A stretch of 11,566 bases of DNA from Candidatus Hermodarchaeum yapensis. Lineage in GTDB: Archaea; Asgardarchaeota; Hermodarchaeia; Hermodarchaeales; Hermodarchaeaceae. Below, piece after piece: positions 8,768 to 9,350 of this stretch. The translations under genes and the position numbers were made by a program. The notes below the pieces were generated by a model. It was not told the origin of the DNA and ran no database searches. It saw only the letters and a program-made list of their open reading frames with translations. Within the stretch, counting starts at the first letter, position 1. Each line of letters starts with the position of its first letter. The stretch covers positions 1 through 11,566 of the forward strand of contig JAEOSK010000054.1 of the NCBI GenBank assembly GCA_016840405.1, given 5' to 3'.

Positions 8768-8800
8768 GGTAACGATGGGATAGTGGTGCGGGGGGAGGGA

Positions 8801-8826
8801 ATTTCGGAGCTCGCAGAACATGCTCT
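8801..8826 (-). other. tRNA intron at position 59/60 (26 nt)
   Basis: Perfect BHB: central helix TTCG/CGAA, bulges AA^A and AT^T, intron stem GAGC/GCTC, outer helix formed by the T-stem. Confidence 0.9.
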
Positions 8827-8857
8827 TTCGAACCCTCGAACCGCTGCCGGACAGGAT

Positions 8858-8878
8858 GTCTCCTAAGCATGGTTAGAT
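8858..8878 (-). other. tRNA intron at canonical position 37/38 (21 nt; register ambiguous by up to 2 nt)
   Basis: Relaxed BHB with CTC/GAG helix, 3' bulge AC^A and intron hairpin CTAA/TTAG. Removing it restores a 7-nt anticodon loop. Confidence 0.8.
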
Positions 8879-8885
8879 CTTGAGT

Positions 8886-8915
8886 TACGCCGTCAACCTG
8901 CAAAAGCAAGTGACT
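8886..8915 (-). other. tRNA intron at position 30/31 (30 nt)
   Basis: Bulges GG^A and TA^A. Central helix CGCA/GGCG has 3 bp plus an A-G mismatch. Intron stem is GTCA-CTTGC/GCAGG-T-TGAC. Confidence 0.85.
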
Positions 8916-8940
8916 CCTGCGCCGTTGACCATGCTTGGCT

Positions 8941-8962
8941 GTGGGGTCTACTCAGGGTAGAT
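8941..8962 (-). other. tRNA intron at position 8/9 (22 nt)
   Basis: Full BHB: central helix GGGG/CCCC, bulges GT^A and AC^A, intron stem TCTAC/GTAGA, outer helix TGGC/GCCA. Confidence 0.85.
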
Positions 8963-9040
8963 ACCCCCGCCACCGGTTAAGTGGCATAGACCCTTCGGAA
9001 GGGTCCCCCGCAGAGGGTATGAGTGATAGGGCAATCAGGA

Positions 9041-9058
9041 ACTTAAAACTGCTTCGGG
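9041..9058 (-). promoter_or_regulatory. Putative BRE/TATA promoter of the tRNA gene
   Basis: The minus strand reads CCCGAAGCAG-TTTTAAGT, predicting a start near 9017. Confidence 0.45.
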
Positions 9059-9290
9059 GTTCTTCCGAGCCAAAGTCAACTTTCTCTACTAATCAAGTCC
9101 TGAATTAGCTTTTGAGAAAGTGGACCATGCTTGATTACCGTTGTCCGAAACTTTTCCATCTGAAGTAGGTCTTCAGTGGAAATCGGTTCCTGCATCATTG
9201 ACAAGCACTGCCCCAAAGGGCTGTAACCTTCTTGTCTCAAGACAGCCGTTTAATGTTTCCGCCCAACTAGCGGCGACAACATTGTGTTTG
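9051..9290. ncRNA. Candidate structured non-coding RNA of unknown family
   Basis: The region has no long ORF and contains at least four consecutive stem-loops, a long-range GTTGTC/GACAAC pairing and K-turn-like motifs on the minus strand. Confidence 0.35.
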
Positions 9291-9350
9291 TAGAATTGTA
9301 TCAAAACGAACAGAATTTAATTTTCAGATCAATTGATTTGACAGAGCTAC

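Follow-up and report, generated by a model that had tools for sequence, protein, structure and literature searches.

It is generally held that a BHB intron can be accommodated at any site where its motif folds. The locus described here raises the question of how far this tolerance goes: can such an intron sit between U8 and A9 of a tRNA, with a central helix taken from the acceptor stem itself, and how could it then be removed? We analyzed a DNA stretch of 11,566 nucleotides from Candidatus Hermodarchaeum yapensis (contig JAEOSK010000054.1 of assembly GCA_016840405.1), referred to as the window. The gene neighbours of the locus encode an HdrA-like protein, 2-oxoacid:ferredoxin oxidoreductase subunits, GcvH and an STT3 homologue (AglB-type). 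The closest named relatives, with 91-96% protein identity, were MAGs labelled Hermodarchaeota or Promethearchaeota, which places the source among the Asgard archaea.

The raw window was searched with ARAGORN, with the intron option on or off, and with an Rfam gathering search. Neither found a tRNA in it. When four inserts were cut out in silico, ARAGORN returned an 88-nt tRNA-Leu(caa) with a perfect cloverleaf. The raw gene had been invisible to both tools because the four inserts interrupt it. It encodes a type II tRNA-Leu(CAA) in five exons and four introns, CCA included (Table 1). On the minus strand, GCGGGGG-U is followed by a 22-nt insert, A-GCC-AAGCAUGGUCAAC-GGC, a split anticodon arm, a long variable arm, a split T loop and finally CCCCCGC-A-CCA. 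No second Leu(CAA) gene was found elsewhere in the window's genome.

Table 1. The tRNA-Leu(CAA) gene, its exons and introns, and the elements upstream of it (window positions).
Feature	Position	Strand	Basis or remark
tRNA-Leu(CAA) gene	8784..8970	-	ARAGORN after splicing; exon versus intron column conservation
Exon 1, G1-U8 (GCGGGGGU)	8963..8970	-	G3-G6 double as the 5' side of the central helix of the BHB
Intron 8/9, 22 nt: A, UCUAC CCUGA GUAGA, CCCC, AC	8941..8962	-	strict hBHBh', covariation, absent in G002
Exon 2, A9-G30	8916..8940	-	G10-A13 pair with leader/G1-C2 as helix h of the 8/9 BHB
Intron 30/31, 30 nt	8886..8915	-	relaxed BHB, A.G mismatch in central helix
Exon 3, A31-G37, anticodon CAA	8879..8885	-	ARAGORN after splicing
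Canonical intron 37/38, 21 nt	8858..8878	-	alignment and ARAGORN after splicing
Exon 4, A38-A59 with long variable arm	8827..8857	-	ARAGORN after splicing
Intron 59/60, 26 nt	8801..8826	-	strict hBHBh' UUCG/CGAA, AA^A, AU^U; h=5, h'=4
Exon 5, U60 to CCA, 3' acceptor strand CCCCCGC	8784..8800	-	ARAGORN after splicing
Spare 5' acceptor strand GCGGGGG	9005..9011	-	putative leader start, 41 nt upstream of G1
Leader spacer, two hairpins	8971..9004	-	stems kept as sequence diverges; MFE structures
BRE/TATA-like box (CGAAGCAG TTTTAAG)	9042..9056	-	ends 30 nt before the spare copy; distance fixed in orthologues and paralogues

The inserts were analyzed with a BHB scanner, whose geometry was a 4-bp central helix, two 3-nt bulges and a cut after the second base of each bulge. 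Two motifs ranked far above the others, those of the 8/9 insert (8962..8941) and the 59/60 insert. The 8/9 motif, top-ranked in the region, has the central helix GGGG/CCCC and the bulges GU^A and AC^A. Its helix h' (UCUAC/GUAGA) is 5 bp long. Its helix h (UGGC/GCCA) is 4 bp long and consists of two leader bases and G1-C2 pairing with G10-A13. Across the genome, 1290 motifs with h of at least 4 and h' of at least 5 were counted among 5.4 M positions. This rate of 2.4e-4 per position corresponds to about 0.05 motifs per 200 nt, and the 8/9 BHB occupied the single position that restores U8-A9.

In gene orientation, G1-C2-GGGG(3-6)-G7-U8 (8970..8963) leads into the insert, and A9-GCC (8940..) follows it. 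A sequence-only reading of this DNA had proposed a complete BHB between U8 and A9 at 8941-8962. The scanner agreed and scored it as a strict hBHBh'; the coordinates are exactly those of the insert, and the proposed motif was right, written in gene orientation (minus strand). That reading had also derived the central helix from acceptor bases 3-6 and expected it to compete with the acceptor stem, and it was correct on both points. Acceptor bases 3-6 do form the central helix, so the BHB and the true acceptor stem are mutually exclusive.

In bulge geometry and flanking helices the insert agrees with archaeal BHB tRNA introns, and a canonical tRNA is left once it and the three other inserts are removed. 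The host encodes a splicing endonuclease, putatively of a type able to cut non-canonical sites, and a ligase. The insert is not a canonical 37/38 intron, since it sits between U8 and A9 and a separate 37/38 intron is present. Nor is the gene split or permuted: its five exons are colinear, span 187 nt of one strand and are preceded by a single promoter-like box.

Orthologues of the gene were then compared. tRNA-Leu(CAA) was present in all 14 genomes of the genus and in 4 genomes of the sister genus. Most of them also held a paralogous tRNA-Leu(UAA), the sole interruption of which was the same 8/9 insert. Twenty-six distinct genes retained the motif geometry (Leu-CAA orthologues from two genera, along with Leu-UAA paralogues); such orthologues and paralogues are non-independent within a lineage, and the analysis as a whole compared three independent lineages. 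Across the 26 genes, central-helix pairs were G-C, or G-U where the intron side had changed, and the bulges were GU^A/U and AC/AU/AA/UU^A. Compensatory changes, which the sequence-only reading had suggested looking for in orthologous loci, were found in h' (A-U to C-G and C-G to G-C). Pairs with one exon side showed only G-C to G-U changes. For 22 sequences, 94.8% of the cells were paired, versus 23-46% in slid registers. Ten cells had changed on both sides, and none of 500 shuffles matched the covariation score. In helix h of the same sequences two pairs were invariant, and the two others were present in 14-17 of the 22.

Nature also supplied a gene without the insert. The orthologue in genome G002 is 97% identical, is syntenic on both sides and precisely lacks the 8/9 insert, reading GCGGGGG-UA-GCC. 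Its homology to the window ends exactly at A9. In all orthologues the first intron base was A or U, the last was C, U or A, and A9 was invariant. Given these variable intron ends and the invariant A9, the 8/9 position alone is compatible with all genes, unlike 7/8 and 9/10.

The insert forms a stable hairpin, and the 22 nt might in principle be retained, so that the mature tRNA would carry an additional hairpin between acceptor stem and D arm. Nothing further speaks in favour of this, and we give it next to no chance. A retained hairpin would break the U8-A14 and 9-23 core geometry, and G002 manages without the insert. The conserved 3-nt bulges and 4-bp spacing are an endonuclease signature that a simple hairpin does not need.

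Scarcely more credible is a tRNA pseudogene at this locus, disrupted or in decay, from which the insert is never removed. The failure of standard finders at the locus and a degenerate partial Leu-UAA copy elsewhere in the genome would be in line with decay. Among 17 CAA orthologues, however, 79 of 85 exon columns were invariant, compared with 28 of 99 intron columns, and the inserts varied while keeping their pairing. All four inserts lie at BHB motifs, and the cloverleaf left by their removal is perfect. The gene is the only Leu(CAA) gene found, and its promoter is conserved. Comparison at the sequence level thus confirmed the 8962..8941 segment (minus strand) as a genuine, conserved BHB intron at position 8/9 of a four-intron tRNA-Leu(CAA) gene.

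The other inserts were assigned in the same way. Placing the cut of the 30/31 intron at 31/32 yields an identical product. Its hairpin GUCA..UGAC covaried to GUCG/CGAC and AUCG/CGAU in the orthologue alignment. The central helix of the 37/38 intron (CUCA/GGAG) has three of four pairs here, and most orthologues have all four, as CUCA/UGAG. A third high-scoring BHB (8931..8899), with a cut in the D loop, was rejected, as its removal leaves no possible anticodon stem. The source of this spurious match is a near-copy of the D-arm 3' half inside the 30/31 intron. The near-copy reads GGUUGACGGCG (8899..8886) and the exonic half GGUCAACGGCG (8930..8916), both on the minus strand. A second anticodon loop candidate, CUUAGGA (UAG), was also discarded. 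It left 4 bases unexplained and was not conserved.

A separate pairing was seen between the D loop and the 37/38 intron. The D-loop segment AAGCAUGGU (8936..8928) is perfectly complementary to ACCAUGCUU in the intron (8873..8865), both on the minus strand. In other species of the genus the two sides had changed together, to GCCUGG in the D loop and CCAGG(U/C) in the intron. The sister genus is without this pairing. Where present, it may serve as a second means of keeping the D region open while splicing takes place.

The sequence-only reading had taken 8/9 for an unrecorded site. A 2014 review names sites from 20/21 to 59/60 "etc.", with 3/4 as the extreme, and leaves 8/9 unnamed (PMC4090602). 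A 2026 Asgard census preprint pools a few acceptor and junction inserts as "other". A record nevertheless exists. Supplementary Data 4 of Valentin-Alvarado et al. 2024 contains a Freyarchaeia tRNA-Thr(CGT) that starts at 1545409 on the minus strand, with its first intron at 1545401..1545376, i.e. 8 nt into the gene (PMC11291895). The Freyarchaeia genome that we examined is evidently the tabulated one, and its Thr(GGT) gene has matching coordinates. The Thr(CGT) locus in it reads GCCUCGG-U ^ U-CCUC-...-GAGG-CGAG-AA ^ A-GCUC, which is a strict hBHBh' at 8/9, and removal of the three published introns gives tRNA-Thr(cgt). The claim of novelty for the site itself therefore fell. In Jordarchaeia, tRNA-Thr(GGU) carries an 8/9 mini-intron of 14-22 nt. 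Discussion of 8/9 was absent from the searched parts of both Valentin-Alvarado et al. 2024 and the 2026 Asgard preprint. The 8/9 site is rare and undiscussed, yet recorded and recurrent in Asgard archaea, and further 8/9 records are possible. Genome-wide scans that looked permissively for 8/9 BHBs together with a matching 3' strand gave only noise, and an Rfam-anchored search was used instead.

The 4-bp central helix of the 8/9 BHB faces competition from a 7-bp, all-G-C acceptor stem, and the first exon is 8 nt long after cleavage. Every intron-bearing Leu gene had a spare GCGGGGG upstream, one of them with 6 of the 7 bases. In 26 genes, pairwise identity was 98.9% for the spare copy, versus 56% for the adjacent spacer. 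A conserved BRE/TATA-like box ended 30-31 nt before the copy in all orthologues and paralogues. For ordinary tRNA genes of the window's genome, the box ended 26-36 nt before the mature 5' end in six of the seven recognised. Since the two spacings are alike, the spare copy should open the precursor, which would most likely start a few bases before GCGGGGG.

Two types of box occurred upstream of the spare copy (L001-L019, L104-L111), at equal distance to it. CGAAGCA(G/A)TTTTAAG was found in the closest relatives of the window, the sister genus and all UAA paralogues, and ACAAACGTTTAAAAC in other species of the window's genus. In G002 (L002, G002:C12), a 409-nt stretch matching window positions 8941-9349 is replaced by 90 unrelated nt. 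This 90-nt stretch upstream of the tRNA carries the ACAAACGTTTAAAGC box, like more distant species. A search of the window's genome gave no match for the source of the replaced 5' region.

The spare copy accompanied the 8/9 intron. None of the 36 other tRNA genes of the window's genome had a copy of its own first 7 nt within 80 nt upstream. The copy was also absent from two other Leu genes that have the same acceptor and no 8/9 intron, from the intron-less G002 gene, and from an outgroup-family Leu(CAA) gene (L020) with introns only at ~31 and 59/60. In Jordarchaeia Thr(GGU), a GCCCCGG copy is followed by 4-6 nt and then GCCCCGG-U, and the copy is exact in four of five genomes. In Freyarchaeia Thr(CGU), the order is GCCUUCGG-UGA-GCCUCGG-U, with GCCUUCGG as the copy for the acceptor GCCUCGG. 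Both Thr copies lie 25-27 nt after a TATA-like box, and the intron-less Thr(GGU) of Freyarchaeia has none. Each 8/9-intron gene examined, whether Leu, Thr(GGU) or Thr(CGU), thus has a promoter-proximal copy of its own 5' acceptor strand. The searched parts of the Asgard tRNA papers (Valentin-Alvarado 2024; the 2026 preprint) do not mention a spare acceptor strand in the leader. Unlike the site, which is already known, this element is undescribed within the reach of our literature searches.

With the promoter at a normal distance from the distal GCGGGGG, that copy might itself be the true tRNA 5' end, and the 41 nt to the proximal copy would then be a fifth intron. This is highly improbable. 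Both central-helix strands of an in-register 41-nt intron would come from the same G-rich repeat and cannot pair. The scanner found no BHB for such an intron, its only nearby match being one base out of register. The base after the distal copy was A or C and not U8, whereas the proximal copy was always followed by U. Moreover, it is the proximal copy that helix h' adjoins. For want of an in-register BHB and of a U8 after the distal copy, we rejected a fifth intron between the GCGGGGG copies. We retained the reading of the distal copy as a spare strand in the leader.

The effect of the leader on folding was predicted with RNAfold. When the leader was left out, G3-G6 paired with the 3' acceptor strand (P 0.83-1.0). 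When it was included, G3-G6 paired with the intron, with P of 0.70-0.99 for the window's genus and of 0.04-0.45 for the sister genus, and in the MFE structures the spare strand took the 3' acceptor strand. The leader was predicted to form two hairpins, GACCC..GGGUC at 9005..8989 and GCCAC..GUGGC at 8985..8969. The latter ends in G1-C2 and competes with helix h in the MFE structures. In one Jordarchaeia gene the freed strand was predicted to pair elsewhere. Mutation of the spare 7-mer alone, in silico, brought the acceptor stem back in the sister genus only, apart from a partial effect in Leu(UAA). In the window's genus the mutant did not behave as a simple decoy model predicts, so the folding evidence is only partial. 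A helper role of the spare strand would draw mainly on the comparative evidence.

These predictions bear on a further reading, in which the intron is real and the spare GCGGGGG was left behind by a local duplication, or by whatever event gave rise to the intron, and is unneeded for splicing. The BHB was still favoured in the window's genus after mutation of the 7-mer, and a leader of 6 nt already favoured it in the window's gene. The copy adjoins the intron, and linkage alone could explain their joint loss in G002 as one event without a functional link. We nonetheless consider a relic unlikely. A neutral one should decay like its surroundings, and the copy has stayed nearly identical in the 26 genes while the spacer diverged. 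In two other lineages and tRNAs, corresponding copies fit different acceptor sequences. A target-site duplication would be expected to flank the intron, and the copy does not do so; the other tRNA genes of the window's genome have none.

In our judgement, the best explanation of the locus, and a probable one, is a functional tRNA-Leu(CAA) with a genuine 8/9 BHB intron that is spliced with the help of the spare strand. The leader copy, which the sequence-only reading overlooked, probably lets an acceptor-like stem form while the BHB exists. We infer the following route. The spare GCGGGGG would pair with the 3' acceptor strand CCCCCGC. The true strand would thereby be freed, G3-G6 pairing with the intron CCCC, and G1-C2 together with two leader bases pairing with G10-A13. 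UCUAC would pair with GUAGA, and two 3-nt bulges would be exposed to the splicing endonuclease, which would cut after U8 and before A9. The spare strand would tether the 8-nt first exon, which carries the leader, until ligation by RtcB. Once RtcB has joined the ends, the true strand would displace the spare one from the acceptor stem, and RNase P would finally remove the 41-nt leader. Splicing ahead of RNase P processing, as the sequence-only reading had supposed, is plausible. Looking across Asgard archaea, we lean somewhat towards the leader acceptor copy being a dedicated cis element that makes 8/9 introns spliceable, accompanies acceptor-proximal tRNA introns there in general and has arisen at least three times.

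The enzymes for such a route were searched for in the window's genome. Two EndA homologues, of 186 and 198 aa, were found, each with N- and C-terminal domains. The first was closest to the catalytic alpha subunit of Aeropyrum pernix (E 2e-46). The second also matched the structural beta chains of A. pernix and Nanoarchaeum. RtcB and the RNase P RNA were both present. According to literature reports, in the part of the source consulted, non-canonical introns are cut only by heteromeric (alpha-beta)2 and epsilon2 endonucleases (PMC5829648). Judged by their homology, the two EndA proteins would fit the heteromeric type. The second homologue is located at G000:C36:10730-10990, on a tRNA-rich contig, about 3.4 kb from the Leu(UAA) gene.

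The 8/9 intron resembles the non-canonical BHB introns of crenarchaea (Thermoproteales and others), which have the same hBHBh' and are presumed to depend on a heteromeric endonuclease and RtcB (PMC4090602). As in those genes, the introns are small, occur several per gene and are placed wherever a BHB can form. The window's gene differs from them in the 8/9 position, the acceptor-based central helix and the acceptor copy in the leader. It is like the published Asgard tRNA introns in its Asgard host, in having up to four introns per gene and in many sites missed by annotators (PMC11291895). Unlike the Freyarchaeia tRNA-Thr(CGT) case (PMC11291895), it belongs to a Hermodarchaeota-like class and to tRNA-Leu. 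Split and permuted tRNA genes (Nanoarchaeum, Caldivirga, Thermofilum and Cyanidioschyzon) likewise use sequence absent from the mature tRNA to pair with the precursor, and their extensions let the BHB form and hold the exons together until ligation (PMC3218864, PMC4090602). Those extensions pair mutually, across two transcripts or permuted ends (PMC3218864, PMC4090602). The window's leader, by contrast, is a cis copy of an exon strand that would pair with the gene's own 3' strand, as a stand-in outside the BHB.

An intron that borrows the acceptor strand shows how far this tolerance can extend, as the tRNA has to be held unfolded for splicing with a first exon of only 8 nt. If the proposed route is true, the spare strand of the leader is a new kind of cis-acting processing aid and imposes an order of maturation in which splicing precedes RNase P cleavage. 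The failure of tRNA finders to detect such genes in Asgard genomes would then be explained as well, and annotation would gain a simple signature: promoter, acceptor copy, acceptor, U8 and BHB.

The tRNA set of the window's genome (G000) is clearly under-annotated by standard tools. ARAGORN called 36 tRNA genes in it, and 23 full-length Rfam matches were obtained. Mis-called or truncated genes included a Leu 'aag' on C3, a Leu(cag) on C17 with its start inside the gene, and a Lys(UUU) on C17 with inserts in the D loop and at 37/38. Contig C36 holds a second, degenerate tRNA-Leu(UAA) body at about 2728-2830 on its minus strand, in which an intron-like hairpin was observed. It has no intact 5' acceptor strand and lies 4.6 kb from the intact gene (C36:7305-7405). 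Either a pseudogene or an att-type duplication beside an inserted element could account for this copy.
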